Virus record (IMG/VR): IMGVR_UViG_3300023174_000062
From: a virus
Length of the DNA: 64,000 nt
Strand: one strand, 5' to 3'
Position numbers and translations under genes: made by a program. The number at the start of each line of letters is the position of its first letter. Positions within the stretch are counted from its first letter, which is position 1. Shown piece by piece: positions 1 to 62,820 of the stretch. Below the pieces are notes generated by a model. It did not search any database. It saw nothing but the letters and a program-made list of their open reading frames with translations, and was not told where the DNA came from.

Positions 1-1536
1 AGTTTCGGTGGTGATGATACTGAAGACTATGAAGACAAAAATCCAAATGATTATGATTCTGGATCCGATGACGGTGATGATGATTTCGAATCTGAAGATC
101 AATTCGACAATGGCTATTCTAATACGCCAACATTCGAAGATGCTATGCCTAATGAGTTGAAGGCATATGGTGATGAAGTGAAATCTGTAACGGATGAAAA
201 ATTTCAACAAGCATTAAAAGGTCTTGCCGAAACAAAAGAAATTTATGTTGGTAAAATTGCTAGCCAATCTAAAATCAATGTAAAAGAATATGTTGTTCCG
301 TTTAAAGAGTTAAAATTCTTTAATGATGAATTGTACAATGATCCTGAGTTGGAACCACACCAGCGTTATGATTCTACTTTGCTAACAAAATTTGAAGCCA
401 AGAATAAAAATCCAATTGCGTATCTTGTAAAAGAATTTGAAATGAAAAAGAAAGCGGCTGAATTGCGCCGTGTAACAGTCTCCGATACTGGTACGCTGGA
501 CACCAACAAGTTGCATACTTACAAATTCAATGACGATATCTTCCGTAAGATTGGTTCTGTTGCTGAAGGTAAGAATCACGGTATTGTGATGTTCATTGAC
601 TGGTCTGGTTCTATGCAAGATAATCTGTCTGGCACAATTGAACAGTTGATTACAATGGCAACGTTCTGCCGCAAAGTGAATATTCCGTTTGATGTTTATG
701 CCTTCAGTACCGAATATCAAAAGGCTAAAAAAGAATATGTTCCTGCGCCAGAAGGTCAATTGCAAATTGATAATTTTTCTCTGTTAAACATTTTGTCTAG
801 CAGTATGAAGAATCCAACATATCGTAAATTTGCAAATGATTTGTTGCAAGTGGCTGAGGCATATCAACCTTATGTAAATCATCGTAGAAATTACAAGTCT
901 AGTTATATCTGTGATGGTATGGGACTTGGTGGTACTCCGTTGAATGCGACAATTCAAGTTGCATCTAATGTTGTGAATGATTTCCGTAAACGCACTCGGT
1001 CAGAAATTGTGAATGTTATCTTTTTGACTGATGGAGAAGATTCTTCTACTCTTTGGACTGATAATGAATTAGGTCGTAGTGTTCGTATCGGACCTTCTGA
1101 CTTCCGTTCAGTATCTTACATTGAAGATAAAGATTCTGCAAAAACCTATCGTGTAAGTGACAAAGGTGTAACACCTACTCTGTTGGAAATTCTAAAGGAT
1201 CGTACTGGTTGCAATTTGATTGGATTCTACATTCTGCCAAAAAGCAAACGTTACTTCCAAAATGCAATGGCACGTTTCAACATGATGATGACGGATGATA
1301 AGTACAAACAATTCCGTAATGAAAAATTCTTTTCTGTTAACGGATATGGCTACTCAGAATATTTTCTGATTCCTGGTGGTGATGATTTGTCTACCGAAGA
1401 TGATTCGCTATCAGACATTCTTGGCGAAGCCAAAGATGTTTCCGCACGTAAGTTGAAAGGCGCATTCTTGAAAATGAACCAAAACCGTTTGACTAATCGT
1501 GTTCTTCTCTCTAAGGTAATCAAGGAAATTGCTTGA
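1..1536 (+). CDS. CobT-like VWA-domain protein (partner of MoxR AAA+ ATPase), 5' truncated
   Basis: Frame open from base 1; acidic linker; MIDAS motif DWSGSM, GGTPL, FLTDGE. Confidence 0.8.
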   Translation, partial: SFGGDDTEDYEDKNPNDYDSGSDDGDDDFESEDQFDNGYSNTPTFEDAMPNELKAYGDEVKSVTDEKFQQALKGLAETKEIYVGKIASQSKINVKEYVVPFKELKFFNDELYNDPELEPHQRYDSTLLTKFEAKNKNPIAYLVKEFEMKKKAAELRRVTVSDTGTLDTNKLHTYKFNDDIFRKIGSVAEGKNHGIVMFIDWSGSMQDNLSGTIEQLITMATFCRKVNIPFDVYAFSTEYQKAKKEYVPAPEGQLQIDNFSLLNILSSSMKNPTYRKFANDLLQVAEAYQPYVNHRRNYKSSYICDGMGLGGTPLNATIQVASNVVNDFRKRTRSEIVNVIFLTDGEDSSTLWTDNELGRSVRIGPSDFRSVSYIEDKDSAKTYRVSDKGVTPTLLEILKDRTGCNLIGFYILPKSKRYFQNAMARFNMMMTDDKYKQFRNEKFFSVNGYGYSEYFLIPGGDDLSTEDDSLSDILGEAKDVSARKLKGAFLKMNQNRLTNRVLLSKVIKEIA

Positions 1537-1596
1537 TGTTGCGTAAAAACAACAGTTTGAATAACCCTTGACTTACCATAAATACTCTGTTATACT
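1537..1596 (+). promoter_or_regulatory. sigma70-type promoter with upstream TGTTG-N8-CAACA palindrome
   Basis: TGTTG cgtaaaaa CAACA 1537-1554; TTGACT 1568, 17 bp, TATACT 1591. Confidence 0.75.
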
Positions 1597-1639
1597 ACTA
1601 GTATTGAAATTGATTTTTAACTGAAAGGCAAATTATATT

Positions 1640-2827
1640 ATGATTACGCAAAGTGAAAAAATTGCATTCGTTACCGAAGCCGCCAAACGTTTCGGTGCCA
1701 TTGTAACCCGCCAGCAATTGGTGACACTTTCTGAAGAGACTGGCACCAAGCGCCAGTTCTGGCTTGAAGCCGACCAGTACCGAGTTGGTCGTGGCAAGTA
1801 TCAATTGCCCCTCCAAGAATTTAATGTTAACATGGCTGGTCTTGCACTAGTGCAATCCACTCCAGTTCCTTCTATGCCAATTACTGAACCTATCAAGGCT
1901 CCTGTTGCAAAGGCAGTAGCAAAAATGTCTTCCGTTGCACGTATGCAAGAAGGCGCAATTATTCCTAAAGTGAATTCTCTATACGTTCCTTTTGGATTCT
2001 TTGACAACATGAAACGTATTGTTGCATCGAAGAAATTTTATCCAGTATTTGTTTCTGGTCTCTCTGGTAACGGCAAGACTTTCATGGTCGAACAAGCCTG
2101 TGCCCAATTGAAAACAGAATGTCTCCGTGTGAATATTTCACCAGAGACTGATGAAGATGATTTGATTGGTGGTTTCCGTTTGATTGACGGTGAGACAAAA
2201 TGGTTTGATGGTCCAGTTGTTCAAGCAATGAAGTCTGGCGCCGTTTTGATTCTTGATGAAATTGATCGTGGTTCAAATAAACTAATGTGCTTGCAAGGTG
2301 TACTTGAAGGCAAAGGTTTGTTTGTTAAAAAGACTGGTGAGTTTGTTGAGCCAATGCAAGGTTTCAACGTTATCGCTACTGCAAACACCAAAGGTAAAGG
2401 TGATGAATCTGGTCGCTATATGGCCGCTACAATTCTTGATGATGCGTTCCTTGAGCGTTTCCCAATTACTGTAGAACAAGAATATCCTGATGTTAAAGTT
2501 GAAACAAAGATTTTGACTAAGTTGTTTACCAGCCTTGGTATTGATGACAAAGCATTCGCAGAAAATCTTGTGAAGTGGGCTGATATCATTCGTAAGACTT
2601 TCGAAGAAGGTGCTATCGATGAATTGATTTCTACTCGCCGTTTGTCGCACATTGCTGAAGCCTATACTATCTTCAATGATAAGATGGAAGCAATTAAGTA
2701 TTGTATCAACCGCTTTGATGCAGAGACTAAAACTTCATTCCTTGATTTGTATACCAAGATTGATGCTGGCATTGATCCTACTGCGGAAGTGACACCTGCG
2801 CCAGCAGTTGATGACGTACCGTTCTAA
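1640..2827 (+). CDS. cobS: CobS-like MoxR family AAA+ ATPase
   Basis: Walker A GLSGNGKT, Walker B LILDEID, ATANTKG, LERF; typical of T4-like phages next to a VWA gene. Confidence 0.85.
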   Translation: MITQSEKIAFVTEAAKRFGAIVTRQQLVTLSEETGTKRQFWLEADQYRVGRGKYQLPLQEFNVNMAGLALVQSTPVPSMPITEPIKAPVAKAVAKMSSVARMQEGAIIPKVNSLYVPFGFFDNMKRIVASKKFYPVFVSGLSGNGKTFMVEQACAQLKTECLRVNISPETDEDDLIGGFRLIDGETKWFDGPVVQAMKSGAVLILDEIDRGSNKLMCLQGVLEGKGLFVKKTGEFVEPMQGFNVIATANTKGKGDESGRYMAATILDDAFLERFPITVEQEYPDVKVETKILTKLFTSLGIDDKAFAENLVKWADIIRKTFEEGAIDELISTRRLSHIAEAYTIFNDKMEAIKYCINRFDAETKTSFLDLYTKIDAGIDPTAEVTPAPAVDDVPF

Positions 2828-2849
2828 ATCTCCTGGCAGTAATGCCTTA

Positions 2850-2877
2850 GAGGCTACTTGACGTAGCCTCTTTTTTT
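2850..2877 (+). terminator. Intrinsic terminator overlapping a sigma70 promoter
   Basis: GAGGCTAC-ttgac-GTAGCCTC-T7; TTGACG 2858, 17 bp, TATAAT 2881. Confidence 0.8.
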
Positions 2878-2918
2878 ATATATAATAGTGAGATAATTTT
2901 TAATAATATGGAGAATTT

Positions 2919-3776
2919 ATGGAATTTGAATTGAACATTCAGCAATTAAGAACTAAAAAACTTTTTATTGCGACACCAATGTATGGCGGACAATGCCATG
3001 GTGCATACACAAAAGCAATCACCGATCTTATGGTACTATGTACCAAGTATGGTATTGAAGCCAAACTCTTTTTCATCTTCAACGAATCACTAGTGCAACG
3101 TGCTAGGAATTATTTGACGGATGAATTTGTTCGTAGTGGATTCGATTATATGCTTTTCATCGATAGCGATATTCACTTTGAAGCGCAAGACGTTTTAGTG
3201 ATGATGCACTTTGCGGTAACCCGTGAAGATATGGATGTTGTTTGTGCGCCATATCCAAAGAAAGCAATTTCTTGGGAGAAAATTAAAGTTGCAGTTGACA
3301 AAGGATTCGCAGATGCTAATCCAAATCAATTGGAAGAATTTGTTGGTGACTACGTTTTCAATCCAGCAGATGGTGTTACTCAATTCCGAATTGATGAACC
3401 AATCGAAGTGAAAGAAAGTGGTACAGGCTTTATGCTTATCACACGTACTGCACTTGAAAAATATGATGTTGCATTCCCAACACAAAGTTATAAGCCAGAT
3501 CATGTGCGTACAGAAAACTTTGATGGTAGCCGAGAAATCATGGCGTACTTTGATTGCGTTATTTGTCCAGATACAAAACGTTATCTCTCAGAAGATTACA
3601 TGTTCTGTCAATGGATGCGTAAAGCAGGTGGTAAGGTTTGGTTGCTTCCATGGATTCGTTTGAAACATGCTGGTAGTTATATCTTTGGTGGTTCTTTGCA
3701 AGCACTTGCGGCTATCAATGCATCACCAACCGCCGATGCTACAGCAGTTAAAAGAAGTGTTACTGCACTAAGATGA
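2919..3776 (+). CDS. GT-A fold glycosyltransferase-like protein
   Basis: IATPMYGG, RARN, FIDSDI (DxD), GTGFMLI, LSEDYMFC motifs. Confidence 0.65.
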   Translation: MEFELNIQQLRTKKLFIATPMYGGQCHGAYTKAITDLMVLCTKYGIEAKLFFIFNESLVQRARNYLTDEFVRSGFDYMLFIDSDIHFEAQDVLVMMHFAVTREDMDVVCAPYPKKAISWEKIKVAVDKGFADANPNQLEEFVGDYVFNPADGVTQFRIDEPIEVKESGTGFMLITRTALEKYDVAFPTQSYKPDHVRTENFDGSREIMAYFDCVICPDTKRYLSEDYMFCQWMRKAGGKVWLLPWIRLKHAGSYIFGGSLQALAAINASPTADATAVKRSVTALR

Positions 3777-4060
3777 TAGACTATCGATATAATGAAGATA
3801 AGACTTTGGAGGAACTGAAGTCTTATATTGACGCAACATACGGGCAACATTATTCCCGTGACAAATTCCAAGCAACAGAATTCATCATCGATGGTGGACA
3901 TGGTGAAGGATTCTGTATCGGGAACGTGCTGAAATATGCACAAAGGTATGGCAAGAAAGACGGCCGCAATCGTAAAGACTTGCTTAAAATTTTACACTAT
4001 GCTATAATCATGCTACACGTACATGACTTGAATGAAGGAAAACAAAATGAAACTAAGTGA
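3773..4060 (+). CDS. DUF3310-like protein
   Basis: HYS...GFCIGNVLKYAQRYGKK...DLLKILHY signature. Confidence 0.7.
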   Translation: MIDYRYNEDKTLEELKSYIDATYGQHYSRDKFQATEFIIDGGHGEGFCIGNVLKYAQRYGKKDGRNRKDLLKILHYAIIMLHVHDLNEGKQNETK

Positions 4061-52873: not shown

Positions 52874-52935
52874 TGTTGCAAAAAAGCAACAACTTCAAAA
52901 ATAGTTGTTGACTTTTTTACCGAAGAGAGTAGAAT
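52874..52935 (+). promoter_or_regulatory. Early promoter with TGTTG-N8-CAACA palindrome
   Basis: Palindrome 52874-52891; TTGACT 52908; TAGAAT 52930. Confidence 0.75.
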
Positions 52936-53924: not shown

Positions 53925-54749
53925 ATGATGACAGCGAACGAACAAACCCTCTGGGAAATCCAAGCATACGGTGCTAAGAAATCCGAAATCCTTGAGTCCG
54001 TTACGGATTCAATCAGTTTCAAATTTTCTGGTCCTGGCATGGTGATTGCAAGTTATCTTTCCGATGCACAGGAAATGATTGCATGTGGTAGTTCGAATGA
54101 TGCACGGCAGTATATCAACATTGCCAAAATGTTGATGATGGAATTCAATTTAGGTTTTAAGGAATAAATATATGATGATAGTTATCCGCACTCAGTACCA
54201 CGAAAATTATGGCGCACATGATTGGGATGGTGAGGGTGAGTGTCCTCAGTATTGGAAAGCCAAAGGCGGTTCAGAGTATAAGATACTTGACGTTCCGCTT
54301 AACATAGACTATAATGAGTTTGTGAAGTTTGCATTGAGTGGCATTGAAACTGATACGGATTACTCCAGTGAGTACATGATTGATTGGTCTATGGAAAGTG
54401 ATGATTACCTTTCATGGTTTGAGAAATCTCAGTTACAGTTTGATGGTGCGATTGCACACAAAGAACCCGCAATGACGTATCAACAAGTTTTGGATAAACA
54501 AAAGGAACTAGCATGAGTAAGATGAGCGAATTGGCGATGGAGATTGAACAATTGTACACACAAGGTTACAATGAGTTCACGATTGCAACAATGCTTAATA
54601 TACCAGTAGAATTGGTTGACAATTTTGTTGCAAGTTTTATGGAAGTGAGTTATAATGAAAGCATGGACGGAGATTTTGATTCCGCTATGGCTTCAGCAGG
54701 ATATGGAACGGATGAGGATTACGGAAGTTATGGAGAGCCTGAATTTTAA
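53925..54749 (+). CDS. Three small early hypothetical genes (53925-54167, 54172-54516, 54513-54749)
   Basis: Packed ORFs with SD; second has ENYG...YWK.KGG motif. Confidence 0.55.
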
Positions 54750-55165: not shown

Positions 55166-55379
55166 AGAACGTTCTGGCTAGTCACCAGATACTGTGACCC
55201 ACAGGATGAGAAGTGGTGTGACAACCACGGGTGGTACACTTTAAACCGAAAGTGCGTTGGCAATACGAGAACGGAACCTGTCGGGAAGCGGGTGGAGGGT
55301 ACGTGGTATGAGTGTCTGGTAAAGACGTCCTCAGAGTCCATTAGTGCTATAATTACCGCCGAGGTTCGCAGAGCATTTT
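55166..55379 (+). ncRNA. Unidentified structured RNA
   Basis: GC-rich intergenic segment with closing stem and several hairpins. Confidence 0.55.
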
Positions 55380-55399
55380 ATGAATTGAAAAAAGGTTTA

Positions 55400-55687
55400 A
55401 TGATGATTAATGCGAATGAGAAAGAAATTTTATTGATTGCACAGGAAGAATGTGCAGAAGTGACACAGGCAATCAGTAAGGTTTTTCGATTTGGATTACA
55501 TGCACAACACAATGGTGCATCTAATCGTGAACGATTGACAGAAGAAGTTGGTGATTTATTTTGCATGATTCAATTGATGATTGAAACAGGTATTATTAAT
55601 ATTGATGAAGTAGATAACGCATCACGAAAGAAAAAAGAAAAACTCCAGAAATGGTCTAACATTTATACGAAAGAAACGGTACTCTAA
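55400..55687 (+). CDS. MazG-like NTP pyrophosphatase
   Basis: EECAEV...K...EEVGDL. Confidence 0.8.
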   Translation: MMINANEKEILLIAQEECAEVTQAISKVFRFGLHAQHNGASNRERLTEEVGDLFCMIQLMIETGIINIDEVDNASRKKKEKLQKWSNIYTKETVL

Positions 55688-55688
55688 A

Positions 55689-55805
55689 ATGAATTTAATC
55701 TCGAAACTCTCAACAAGAAATTATATGCCAATTACATGGCAGAGTATTTCTCGCTTTGAGAAATCAGATTGCCACGCACCAGTGATGGGGGCTTGTTATA
55801 CCTGA
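55689..55805 (+). CDS. 38 aa attenuator leader peptide containing all 20 amino acids
   Basis: MNLISKLSTRNYMPITWQSISRFEKSDCHAPVMGACYT; 3' end overlaps antiterminator strand. Confidence 0.75.
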   Translation: MNLISKLSTRNYMPITWQSISRFEKSDCHAPVMGACYT

Positions 55806-55875
55806 GGACCATAAGTCCAAAGAGAATACAAAGACAAGCCCCCTAGAGACTGAAAACTCTAGGGGGTTTTTCTTT
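55787..55875 (+). terminator. Attenuator: antiterminator versus intrinsic terminator
   Basis: GGGGGCTTGT 55787-96 pairs ACAAGCCCCC 55834-43; terminator CCCCCTAGAG-8nt-CTCTAGGGGG-TTTTTCTTT 55839-75. Confidence 0.85.
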
Positions 55876-55902: not shown

Positions 55903-55913
55903 GTTCTTTAACA
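55903..55913 (+). promoter_or_regulatory. rrn-type boxA antitermination site
   Basis: GTTCTTTAACA matches GYTCTTTAANA. Confidence 0.65.
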
Positions 55914-55936: not shown

Positions 55937-56010
55937 TGGGGGTTAGTGTAGCGGTAGCACACCAGACTTTGACTCTGTTAGCACAAGTTCGATCCTTGTA
56001 CCCTCTGCCA
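55937..56010 (+). tRNA. tRNA-Gln(UUG)
   Basis: Cloverleaf, anticodon TTG, CCA. Confidence 0.9.
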
Positions 56011-56016
56011 ATAAAT

Positions 56017-56091
56017 GGTGACATAGCACAGCGGTAGTGCAACTGCTTCATACGCAGTAGGTCGTTGGCTCGAATCCAACTGTCACCACCA
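56017..56091 (+). tRNA. tRNA-Met(CAU), probably elongator
   Basis: Anticodon CAT, paired 1:72, CCA. Confidence 0.85.
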
Positions 56092-56093
56092 AT

Positions 56094-56168
56094 GGGGGTA
56101 TAACTTAACGGCTAAAGTAGTAGGCTTTTAACCTATTAATCCGAGTTCGATTCTCGGTGCCCCTACCA
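56094..56168 (+). tRNA. tRNA-Lys(UUU)
   Basis: Anticodon TTT, CCA. Confidence 0.9.
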
Positions 56169-56180
56169 GTTTTCTTTGGT

Positions 56181-56256
56181 GTGACCTTAGTGTTAGCGGT
56201 CAGCACCTCGGATTGTGATTCCGATAGGATGGGTTCAAATCCCATAGGTCACCCCA
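56181..56256 (+). tRNA. tRNA-His(GUG)
   Basis: Anticodon GTG, C73, CCA. Confidence 0.9.
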
Positions 56257-56265
56257 AAGAAAATT

Positions 56266-56340
56266 GCCTTGTTAACTCAGCGGTAGAGTGTCTCCCTTAC
56301 AAGGAGAAGGTCGGCAGTTCGATCCTGTCACAAGGTACCA
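56266..56340 (+). tRNA. tRNA-Val(UAC)
   Basis: Anticodon TAC, CCA. Confidence 0.9.
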
Positions 56341-56500
56341 ATTCACTTGATGCTAGGCAAGTTAAGGCCTAGCAGTCCTATCCCAAGGATCACTTGCGCT
56401 AGAACGCAAGGCCGATGAGCATTGAAAGCCCTACCACGGGTGCCAATGGACGATAAATTGGGAAGCAATAGTTAGTAGTGGGAGATGAAAATCGAAATTA
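56341..56500 (+). ncRNA. Unidentified structured RNA within tRNA array
   Basis: TGCTAGGC/GCCTAGCA, CTTGCG/CGCAAG, TCCCAA/TTGGGA stems. Confidence 0.55.
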
Positions 56501-56501
56501 A

Positions 56502-56575
56502 TCCCGGATAGTTAAATGGTATAACGTAGGCTTGATAAGCCTTTATCGCAAGTTCGATTCTTGCTCTGGGAACCA
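56502..56575 (+). tRNA. tRNA-Ile(GAU)
   Basis: Anticodon GAT, CCA. Confidence 0.9.
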
Positions 56576-56578
56576 AAT

Positions 56579-56655
56579 GCCCTCTTACTCCAATTGGTAG
56601 AGAGAGCGGTCTTAGAAGCCGTAAAGTCTCAGTTCGAATCTGAGAGAGGGCACCA
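56579..56655 (+). tRNA. tRNA-Leu(UAG), short variable loop
   Basis: Anticodon TAG, 77 nt, CCA. Confidence 0.85.
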
Positions 56656-56663
56656 AGTATTTT

Positions 56664-56738
56664 GCGCCTTTAGTGAAATGAATATCACACCTTGCTACGA
56701 ACGAGGAATTGGGAGTTTGATTCTCTCAGGGTGCGCCA
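56664..56738 (+). tRNA. tRNA-Arg(ACG)
   Basis: Anticodon ACG, CCA. Confidence 0.85.
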
Positions 56739-56740
56739 AT

Positions 56741-56816
56741 GGGACTTTAGCAAATGTGGTCATTGCGGTCGCCTGAAGAGCGATGGAAGTTGGTTCGATT
56801 CCAACAGGTCCTACCA
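56741..56816 (+). tRNA. tRNA-Phe(GAA)
   Basis: Anticodon GAA, CCA. Confidence 0.9.
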
Positions 56817-56822
56817 AGATAT

Positions 56823-56914
56823 GGAAGATAATGCAGGTGGGATGGTCCGCCGACTAGCCTTGAAAACTAGGTTCTCAGAAATGGGATGGGGTTCGACTCC
56901 TCTGTCTTCCGCCA
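56823..56914 (+). tRNA. tRNA-Ser(UGA), non-canonical 8/4-type
   Basis: Anticodon TGA, long V arm, G73, CCA. Confidence 0.8.
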
Positions 56915-56920
56915 ATATGT

Positions 56921-57008
56921 AGAGAGTTGCCTGAGTGGTTAAAGGAGCGGTTTGCTAAACCGTCATTGCGAAAGCGGTGCATGAGTTCGAATCTCATACT
57001 CTCTGCCA
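56921..57008 (+). tRNA. tRNA-Ser(GCU)
   Basis: Anticodon GCT, long V arm, CCA. Confidence 0.9.
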
Positions 57009-57009
57009 G

Positions 57010-57113
57010 TGTTGCAAAAAAACAACAGTTACCAAAAATTGTTGTTGACAAAAAATGTGTAGAGTGTTATACTCTATTCATAGATTGAGAAATCAATCAA
57101 ATGTTCTTTAAAA
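57010..57113 (+). promoter_or_regulatory. Internal promoter with palindrome, boxB-like hairpin and boxA
   Basis: TGTTG-N8-CAACA 57010; TTGACA 57045-17-TATACT 57068; GATTGA-GAAA-TCAATC 57083; GTTCTTTAAAA 57103. Confidence 0.75.
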
Positions 57114-57196: not shown

Positions 57197-57398
57197 ATTT
57201 AATTACATTGGTTACCAAGCCAGTAGGTAATTTAACAAGTGAGAACCAGTTGACGGACTGGCACTTCTAGATTACATGAACGAGCGAATCACGCTGGAAC
57301 AACTTGGTCTGTAATGTGGTTGACAAGCAAATCCATGGACGGCATGGTAGGGCAGGTTCAAAACTGTTATTTTTGTCAATCATCCAGTGTAATTAAAT
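57197..57398 (+). ncRNA. Unidentified multibranch RNA
   Basis: 15 bp closing stem ATTTAATTACATTGG/CCAGTGTAATTAAAT. Confidence 0.65.
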
Positions 57399-57402
57399 GT
57401 GG

Positions 57403-57522
57403 TATTAGATTAGTTGACGTAAGCCATGGGCAATCGTAACACCTGAGTAACTGCGTACATAAACGGTAAGGTGGCCACTAATTCCGTTGAGCGTAGCAAA
57501 TAGTGCGTCAACTAATCTAATA
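57403..57522 (+). ncRNA. Unidentified RNA with long closing stem
   Basis: TATTAGATTAGTTGACGTA/TGCGTCAACTAATCTAATA. Confidence 0.65.
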
Positions 57523-58084: not shown

Positions 58085-58163
58085 TCCGAGAAACCCGAGC
58101 AAGGTGCATGGGCGTGACTGTTAATCACTGGTTAGAAGAGTTCGATCCTCTTACTCGGAGCCA
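58085..58163 (+). tRNA. tRNA-Asn(GUU)
   Basis: Anticodon GTT, U1-A72, CCA. Confidence 0.85.
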
Positions 58164-58178
58164 ATTACAAAGAAGAAT

Positions 58179-58922
58179 ATGAAAAAAATAATCTTGTCTC
58201 TATTAATGTTTACATGTTTGAGTGCTAATGCTATTACAGTTTACACATACAACATTACTAAACAGTATCCAATTGTTGATGCTGAAATTAATACAGTCAG
58301 ACCAATAGCAAGTATCACAAAGTTGATGACTGCACTGGTATTACTTGAGAGTGGGATTGATCTGAAAGAGAAAGTTCCATACAAAGGAATGTTCTATTCA
58401 CATAATAAGTTTACTAGAGAAGAGTTGTTGAATTTGATGCTAGTGAAAAGTGACAACAGAGCCGCAGAAGCATTAGCAGAAAGCATGGGTGGTAAACTAT
58501 GGACAGTTTATCAAATGAACAAACGTGCAATTATGCTTCAAATGTATGATACGAAATTTGATGATGTATCTGGTCTGAGTGCAAAGAATACCAGTACCGC
58601 AAAAGATTTAGTTATCATGTTGACAGATGCATACAAGCATGATAAGATACGTGATATATCTGCATTGAGTAGATACGATTTAAAAGTTGTAGATAAGAAG
58701 AATAGAGAGAAACACATTCAAGTCAATAACACTAACGTGAAGTTGATGAACAAATATGATATCATTGAAGTATCTAAAACTGGCACAACGAATGCGGCTG
58801 GTAAGTGTCTTGTGATGATTGTACATAAGAATGGTGAACAATATGCAATTGTTATTCTCGGAGGCACAACAAGAGCCGATGTGGATAACTTAGCAAAGAA
58901 TATAATGGAGAAGATAATTTAA
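58179..58922 (+). CDS. Peptidase S11 D-Ala-D-Ala carboxy/endopeptidase (PBP7-like)
   Basis: Signal peptide; ASITK (SxxK), SDN, KTG. Confidence 0.9.
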   Translation: MKKIILSLLMFTCLSANAITVYTYNITKQYPIVDAEINTVRPIASITKLMTALVLLESGIDLKEKVPYKGMFYSHNKFTREELLNLMLVKSDNRAAEALAESMGGKLWTVYQMNKRAIMLQMYDTKFDDVSGLSAKNTSTAKDLVIMLTDAYKHDKIRDISALSRYDLKVVDKKNREKHIQVNNTNVKLMNKYDIIEVSKTGTTNAAGKCLVMIVHKNGEQYAIVILGGTTRADVDNLAKNIMEKII

Positions 58923-62252: not shown

Positions 62253-62328
62253 GGGCTGATGGCTTAATGGTTAAAGCAGCCGACTCATAATCGGTCGATT
62301 GGGAGTTCAATTCTCTCTCAGCCCACCA
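62253..62328 (+). tRNA. tRNA-Ile2(CAU, lysidine type)
   Basis: CGACTCATAATCG arm as in bacterial ileX. Confidence 0.78.
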
Positions 62329-62349
62329 AGTTTTATTAAGGAGTACGTT

Positions 62350-62820
62350 GTGCGAAAATTAGATTTAGATGAGGTGAGGCAATTCATAGAAGAACAAACA
62401 CCAGAGACTAAAATCTATATTGGTTGTGATTCTGAAAGATTTAACATAGGTGGATTGTGGTACGCAGATTATATTCTCGCTATCGTAATTCATATCAACG
62501 GAAATAATGGATGCAAATTGTTTGGTGAAGTACAGCGTGAACGTGACTATGACCAAAAAGTTAATCGTCCAAGATATCGTTTGATGAATGAAGTGTATAA
62601 ACTTTCTGAGTTATATATTAAACTTGCAGATGTACTTGAAGGTCGTGATGTAGAAGTGCATTTGGACATTAATCCAAATGAGTTGCATGGAAGTTCTTGT
62701 GTTATTAATGAAGCAATTGGATATATCAAAGGAACATGTAATGTTGTTCCGATGGTTAAACCAAATGCGTTTGCCGCTTCTTATGCGGCAGATAGACTGA
62801 AAGGATTGAAAGTTGCGTAA
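62350..62820 (+). CDS. YkuK/DUF458 RNase H-like protein
   Basis: YIGCDS, RL..EV, VHLDIN, KP.AFAAS..AD. Confidence 0.8.
   Translation: MRKLDLDEVRQFIEEQTPETKIYIGCDSERFNIGGLWYADYILAIVIHINGNNGCKLFGEVQRERDYDQKVNRPRYRLMNEVYKLSELYIKLADVLEGRDVEVHLDINPNELHGSSCVINEAIGYIKGTCNVVPMVKPNAFAASYAADRLKGLKVA

Follow-up and report, generated by a model that had tools for sequence, protein, structure and literature searches.

Enterobacterial amino-acid leaders (trpL, hisL, pheL, leuL, the multivalent thrL and that of ilvGMEDA) are short translated leaders that overlap an antiterminator competing with an intrinsic terminator; a ribosome stalled upstream frees the antiterminator. The phage locus analysed here shares this layout, including a candidate pause hairpin in the leader. 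Classical leaders use codon runs for one to three amino acids, whereas this leader has about one codon for nearly every tRNA. They control enzymes of biosynthetic operons, whereas tRNA genes lie downstream here, in a phage; they stand at the transcript start, whereas this leader is placed as if coupled behind an upstream gene. When untranslated they superattenuate through a stable protector, whereas read-through is predicted here, with no stable protector. The first-pass annotation had likened the locus to the trp, his and thr attenuators, and in structure the likeness held: the ORF is frame-conserved, the terminator is intrinsic and the antiterminator excludes it. The locus is nevertheless no member of those families, and the Rfam His_leader model matched the switch only weakly (28.5 bits against a cut-off of 49).

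The pheST attenuator of E. coli resembles the present locus in that it responds to a charged tRNA and acts on the supply side of translation, but it senses one amino acid and targets a synthetase instead of tRNA genes. In T-box riboswitches, too, the state of a tRNA sets the choice between terminator and antiterminator, but these bind one uncharged tRNA directly, without translation; the present locus had neither an Rfam match nor a motif match to a T-box. In tufB autoregulation of Salmonella, whether transcription terminates depends on how fast the ribosome moves, and the outcome feeds back on a component of translation; as summarized in PMC12360218 (citing Brandis et al. 2016), that system is unlike the present one in being Rho-dependent, using the tufB start itself and sensing EF-Tu, and it has neither a dedicated all-codon leader nor an intrinsic terminator switch. 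Phage tRNAs are known to counter host tRNA depletion (PMC10264068), with examples from PARIS and retrons (PMC11464382, PMC11555353). These papers concern the action of the tRNAs, and the supply they describe is the likely selective reason for a near-complete set. A literature search, confined to a collection with few subscription journals, returned no description of demand-sensing control of phage tRNA transcription. What is new is the proposed input (the whole tRNA pool), the target (tRNA genes) and the phage setting; the mechanism of leader-peptide attenuation is known.

The locus and its leader ORF

The window, a 64,000-nt stretch of IMG/VR record IMGVR_UViG_3300023174_000062, comes from an uncultured T4-like phage of freshwater lake samples. 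Its nearest cultured relative, as judged by RNase H, is Methylophilales phage Melnitz (59% identity). Matches of another gene to MAGs were taxonomically scattered. Transcription-translation coupling in the host is assumed throughout. The features of the locus are as follows.

54628–54656, + strand: candidate sigma70-type promoter (10 of 12 consensus matches), the transcript of which would run into the leader
55400–55687, + strand: MazG-like pyrophosphohydrolase gene (Pfam PF03819, E 8.6e-6; start codon uncertain)
55689–55805, + strand: leader ORF of 38 codons, with 20 residues and 23 of 23 codon boxes
55696–55770, + strand: long imperfect hairpin P1 inside the ORF, a candidate synchronising pause hairpin (-19.4 kcal/mol)
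55787–55796, + strand: 5' strand of the antiterminator in codons 33–36, with a nine-base core invariant in all homologues
55806–55818, + strand: small hairpin directly 3' of the stop codon, a candidate second pause hairpin
55834–55843, + strand: shared switch segment with two alternative roles, as partner of the antiterminator strand or as 5' arm of the terminator
55837–55875, + strand: intrinsic terminator, consisting of a hairpin (detected at 55836–55869; core -21.5 kcal/mol) and a U tract
55903–55913, + strand: boxA-like site resembling those of rRNA operons, 3' of the terminator
55937–57008, + strand: first block of 11 tRNA genes (Gln, Met, Lys, His, Val, Ile, Leu, Arg, Phe, Ser-TGA, Ser-GCT)
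56741–56816, + strand: tRNA-Phe gene
57045–57073, + strand: sigma70-type promoter within the array, ahead of tRNA-Glu (conserved; 11 of 12 consensus matches)

The MazG-like gene stops 1 nt before the leader ATG, an arrangement that suggests translational coupling from MazG to the leader. The GC-rich non-coding gap before MazG (55166–55385) had no Rfam match and a folding z of only -1.35; contigs of a relative covered it at a depth of 1257–3849 in one lake RNA run, which hints at an abundant RNA.

Recounting 55689–55805 bore out the claims on which the locus had been singled out: the 38-codon ORF contains every amino acid, its codons 11–34 hold 19 different residues, and both codon boxes of Leu (TTA, CTC), Ser (TCN, AGT) and Arg (AGA, CGC) are used. 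With these boxes counted separately, 23 of 23 are present (chance P=7.5e-5). No residue occurs more than five times, and most occur once or twice. The count of 20 residues by itself is weak evidence, because its chance probability is 0.023 under uniform use and 0.0028 under the residue use of the phage, and because, of 526 short ORFs in the window, 2 contain all 20. The peptide is absent from the recorded gene calls and matched no family in Pfam, NCBIfam (in which no leader-peptide family corresponds to it) or PHROGs.

Homologues keep the reading frame

We searched for homologues by MazG, by helix pattern and by a peptide-only pattern and obtained 32 distinct loci with 26 distinct ORFs, whose pairwise identity goes down to 49%. 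All 26 ORFs were open over 37–42 codons and kept the start codon and the frame. Their length differences are whole codons with one exception, L281, where a 1-nt insertion past the antiterminator is followed by a stop three codons further on. Homologous leaders lie closely downstream of a MazG-like gene; the leader start relative to the MazG stop takes three forms, either separated from it by 1 nt or overlapping it by 1 or 4 nt, although a few lie at 6–7 nt and one record is frameshifted. They retain the antiterminator strand and the terminator, and a tRNA array follows wherever the contig extends that far. The homologues found with the peptide-only pattern all have the antiterminator and the terminator as well, plus tRNAs where the contig is long enough.

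The pN/pS ratio of the leader was 0.14–0.80, below 1 in all pairs, and about ten residues are invariant. In the same pairs synonymous divergence was lower in the leader (0.36–0.43) than in MazG (0.50–0.76), indicating that the RNA is constrained too. The leader ORF thus behaves like a translated frame, and we infer its translation from this pattern. The first-pass annotation had staked its proposal on homologous loci retaining amino-acid diversity and complementarity; ORF, codon diversity, complementarity, stop position and tRNA array are all kept. Its expectation for related loci was borne out for short ORFs of near-complete coverage before tRNA arrays, but not for covariation, as the antiterminator is invariant.

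Searches with blastn and tblastn found no leader homologue in cultured phages, and none was found in bacterial genomes. With a strict detector, the tRNA genes of the cultured phages Moby, avDM12-TAAL, PA5oct and RB23 and of four other lake-phage loci proved to have no element of this kind in front of them. A pattern search with the post-stop hairpin returned the known loci and chance matches. Among long profile matches, P0004 and P0005 proved to be read-throughs of the same leader under another code; the profile matches P0006 and P0007 were unrelated repeats. Assembled metatranscriptome contigs covered the leader in three runs; such contigs do not show ends, strand or level and were not used as evidence.

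A predicted stop/go switch

The segment 55787–55796 is the exact complement of 55834–55843, as the annotation had stated, and the intrinsic terminator was recovered as well. Complementarity of at least 10 nt to the terminator arm occurs in 0.4% of windows of the same length, and at the three other strict terminators in the window the complement reaches at most 5 nt. The antiterminator strand includes the Gly codon GGG, rare in this phage (3.5% of its Gly codons); the joint rarity of its codons is 0.8%. Its core was also invariant in homologues found without using it. Of the 9 pairs of the antiterminator helix, 7 are the same in every homologue, and the variation consists of one G-U and two single mismatches; pairing is 99%, and no pair is changed on both sides, so covariation lends the antiterminator no support. 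The terminator stem varies in length among homologues with its arms matched, and the spacing from antiterminator to stop is 16–19 nt in all but one.

We folded the RNA with the ribosome footprint masked. With the A site on codons 2–30 or 31, the antiterminator had a probability of 1.0 before the 3' arm of the terminator emerges; with the A site on codon 32 or any later one up to the stop, the terminator won. This switch point, codon 31/32, fell at the same conserved Pro in six homologues. Masked folding of both conformers thus reproduced the predicted switch, in which a ribosome at the end of the ORF blocks the antiterminator. The proposal that a stall at almost any codon would free it stands, in the model, for codons 2–31 and fails from codon 32. 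The annotation had itself warned of late codons (Val32, Gly34): in this allele the predicted sensing window holds 18 residues, and Val and Gly, which occur only at or beyond the switch point, are probably not sensed.

The protector hairpin was only -5.8 kcal/mol, and without a ribosome the antiterminator had a probability of 1.0 before the 3' arm emerges. Because the protector is weak, early stalls and an untranslated leader are both predicted to give read-through, and such predicted behaviour is the design that a broad sensor needs.

Proposed mechanism

We propose, with a probability of roughly 0.74, that the element is a ribosome-mediated transcription attenuator that broadly audits the tRNA pool and raises tRNA transcription when any one of most tRNA species fails or when decoding slows. 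A ribosome finishing MazG would restart on the leader. If codons 2–31 are read at normal speed, the ribosome would cover the antiterminator strand, the terminator would form and transcription would stop. If a sampled tRNA is absent or not charged, or if decoding as a whole is slow, the ribosome would lag and the antiterminator would pair with the 5' arm of the terminator, letting RNA polymerase pass through boxA into the tRNA array. The phage tRNAs would then relieve the stall, a negative feedback. Such read-through would be the only apparent route to the first 11 tRNAs here and an addition to a basal promoter in most relatives.

A narrower claim, for which we see even odds, is that the replacement tRNA set is induced by a leader stall whenever any single tRNA species is lost, for example to an anticodon nuclease of the host, and that selection has edited the codon list to match the controlled tRNA genes. 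In the Elf-Ehrenberg model (PMC1183508), a leader with one codon per tRNA responds little to a mild shortage; such a design suits severe depletion, such as nuclease attack (PMC10264068).

Codon coverage across the family

The same switch might read overall translation only, through elongation speed, ribosome supply or a failure to restart after MazG. Its causes would be host shut-off, antibiotics or ribosome-targeting toxins; loss of a single tRNA would barely matter, and the diverse codons would average the pool. This account agrees with the weak protector, as an untranslated leader antiterminates as well, with the poor sensing by single codons in the Elf-Ehrenberg model (PMC1183508), and with the precedent of elongation-speed control that PMC12360218 summarizes for tufB. 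An averaging device, however, need not track single species, and coverage in this family is kept box by box, with relocations. For this reason, and because the Phe codon decays where tRNA-Phe is gone, we regard the account as unlikely.

Fourteen of the 26 ORFs contain 20 residues, ten contain 19 and two contain 18, with 21–23 boxes; the claim of complete coverage therefore applies to this genome, and the family ranges from 18 to 20 residues. Val occurs in six alignment columns, AGY-Ser in four and Tyr in three, and Cys relocates too. When alignment columns were shuffled among seven lineage representatives, the chimeras had 21.1 +/- 0.3 boxes against 22.4 in real leaders (0 of 5000 shuffles, p<0.001) and 18.8 residues against 19.6 (p 0.0006), and for most of the distant pairs random substitution at the changed sites retained the observed box count in 1–4% of trials; both nulls ignore shared ancestry and RNA pairing, which makes these p values optimistic. 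Coverage is maintained, and by these tests selected, as a whole.

The sensing window shows the same tendency. Six divergent leaders (L015, L087, L094, L239, L275, L281) have all 20 residues within it, and several alleles sense only 15–17. In five of these six, the window Cys has become Ser and a new Cys has arisen upstream, despite an invariant Cys in the tail. This relocation fits selection on the sensing window and not on the peptide.

Leader codons and downstream tRNA genes

The 23 of 23 boxes stand ahead of 26 tRNA genes, so that the control codons match the downstream products, with some mismatches in relatives. The single Phe codon of the leader was replaced in some relatives by TCA, CTT or ATT. 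The tRNA-Phe gene was physically absent from the array in 6 of 7 leaders without the codon (L008, L010, L101, L298, L324, L240), among them L010, a complete 150-kb genome with 24 tRNA genes and none for Phe; it was present in 13 of 14 leaders with the codon. The association had a Fisher p of 0.0009 on records and 0.04 with kin collapsed. On the tree the cases of Phe loss cluster into about two groups, so they may go back to one or two losses of the gene, after which the codon changed up to three times.

The exceptions are L004, which keeps the codon without the gene, and L013, which lacks the codon and whose array switches after tRNA-Val. Both look recombinant or chimeric. In L013 a different array begins directly after tRNA-Val (2230 onward), and in L004 the array is joined to the leader of another lineage; recombination at tRNA genes or assembly chimeras would produce such joins. 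Other codons and genes disagreed in L015 (no AGR, tRNA-Arg(TCT) present), in L317 and L278 (no Val codon, tRNA-Val present) and in L090 (no Tyr codon, tRNA-Tyr present). An apparent Tyr mismatch in three relatives was rejected, since an atypical tRNA-Tyr is present (L097:2920–3224, L340:8352–8579, L275:2002–2347); it has an intact anticodon arm with unusual D and T arms and was missed by ARAGORN. L340, which has about 28 tRNAs, also carries a long-bodied tRNA, called as Ile, whose TAT anticodon is unusual in bacteria (2366–2456).

Transcription of the tRNA array

The array comprises 26 tRNA genes, 24 found by ARAGORN and two more at relaxed settings, tRNA-Ser(TGA) (56823–56910) and tRNA-Asn (about 58085–58160), which the default run missed and which relaxed settings or Rfam recovered. 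A D-Ala-D-Ala carboxypeptidase-like gene lies inside the array (58179–58922), and an RNase H-like gene directly follows it (62299–62820). The spacers at 56341–56500 and 57197–57500 are long, carry no tRNA and had no Rfam match; the former is missing in some relatives, where RNA contigs skip it, and looks like a mobile structured RNA.

As annotated, the first tRNA gene downstream of the terminator is tRNA-Gln at 55937. A promoter similar to that at 54628–54656 occurs at the same place in most close relatives. The internal promoter at 57045, which the annotation had pointed out, could transcribe the later tRNAs independently of read-through. Of 29 loci whose spacer is complete, 21 have a consensus sigma70 promoter between the terminator and the first tRNA; this genome and seven others of the 29 have none there. 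Because 21 loci have their own promoter, read-through would usually add to basal transcription. The idea that the leader gates the tRNA array therefore survives for the first 11 tRNAs of this genome, where read-through appears to be the sole route as far as consensus promoters are considered, and not for most relatives, which have a promoter after the terminator. Several early-type promoters have an inverted repeat directly next to the -35 box (52887–52935 and the spacers of L001, L008, L015 and L094), which recurs at the post-terminator promoter of relatives; it is a possible operator or phage promoter signature.

The boxA-like sequence at 55903–55913 is matched exactly or nearly so in almost all homologous spacers, and all keep it or a near variant; by analogy with the known NusB/NusE boxA, it may act in antitermination. 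Boxes of this kind (55903–55913 and 57103–57113), each preceded by a small hairpin and conserved in relatives, head both tRNA blocks, which suggests rRNA-operon-style Nus antitermination of phage tRNA arrays.

A separate array promoter in most relatives also fits the view that the ORF encodes a small functional protein ending the MazG operon and that the terminator behind it is plain and constitutive, with complementarity and residue diversity as inherited by-products. The invariant residues and the pN/pS below 1 in all pairs agree with such a protein. Against it, the synonymous sites of the antiterminator are frozen at codons that the phage rarely uses, residues relocate rather than hold position, and the peptide lacks a match in the three family collections; in the eight genomes without a downstream promoter, a constitutive stop would silence 10–11 tRNAs. 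We consider this explanation improbable.

Hairpins in and after the ORF

One pause hairpin of the annotation, 55737–55774 (-12.5 kcal/mol), was not supported as a conserved fold and is outcompeted by the longer, conserved P1. P1 spans codons 3–28; its core helices are 95–99% paired in 26 sequences, with one pair changed on both sides, and its folding z was -2.2 against synonymous recoding. The other, 55806–55818, folds in nearly all homologues, weakly (-3 to -7 kcal/mol), and may serve as a pause site. From their placement, P1 and the post-stop hairpin may act as pause hairpins that keep polymerase and ribosome in step. That the functional unit is instead an RNA (a structured small RNA, or a processing or timing element made of the long hairpin and terminator), with pairing shaping the ORF and translation incidental, would account for the conservation of P1, for several residue changes that preserve pairing and for the several other structured RNAs of the region, but is the least probable explanation of all, given that 26 of 26 ORFs keep frame and start codon, indels come in codon units, the start stays beside the MazG stop and no Rfam family reaches its gathering score.

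Implications

Why phages carry tRNAs has been an open question for more than 50 years, the main ideas being codon compensation and the replacement of destroyed host tRNAs (PMC10264068). If the switch proposed here raises the tRNA genes when decoding fails, it would be direct, genome-written evidence that phage tRNAs answer a measured shortage, and it would carry leader-peptide attenuation beyond single amino acids and enzymes, to the decoding pool as a whole and to targets that are non-coding. The element, of roughly 190 nt, is portable, so the question can be tested with a reporter, and it could itself be used to report broadly on tRNA-cleaving defence systems or translation stress. If the audit works at the level of single tRNAs, it would amount to a counter-defence that is inducible and to a natural biosensor for all tRNAs.
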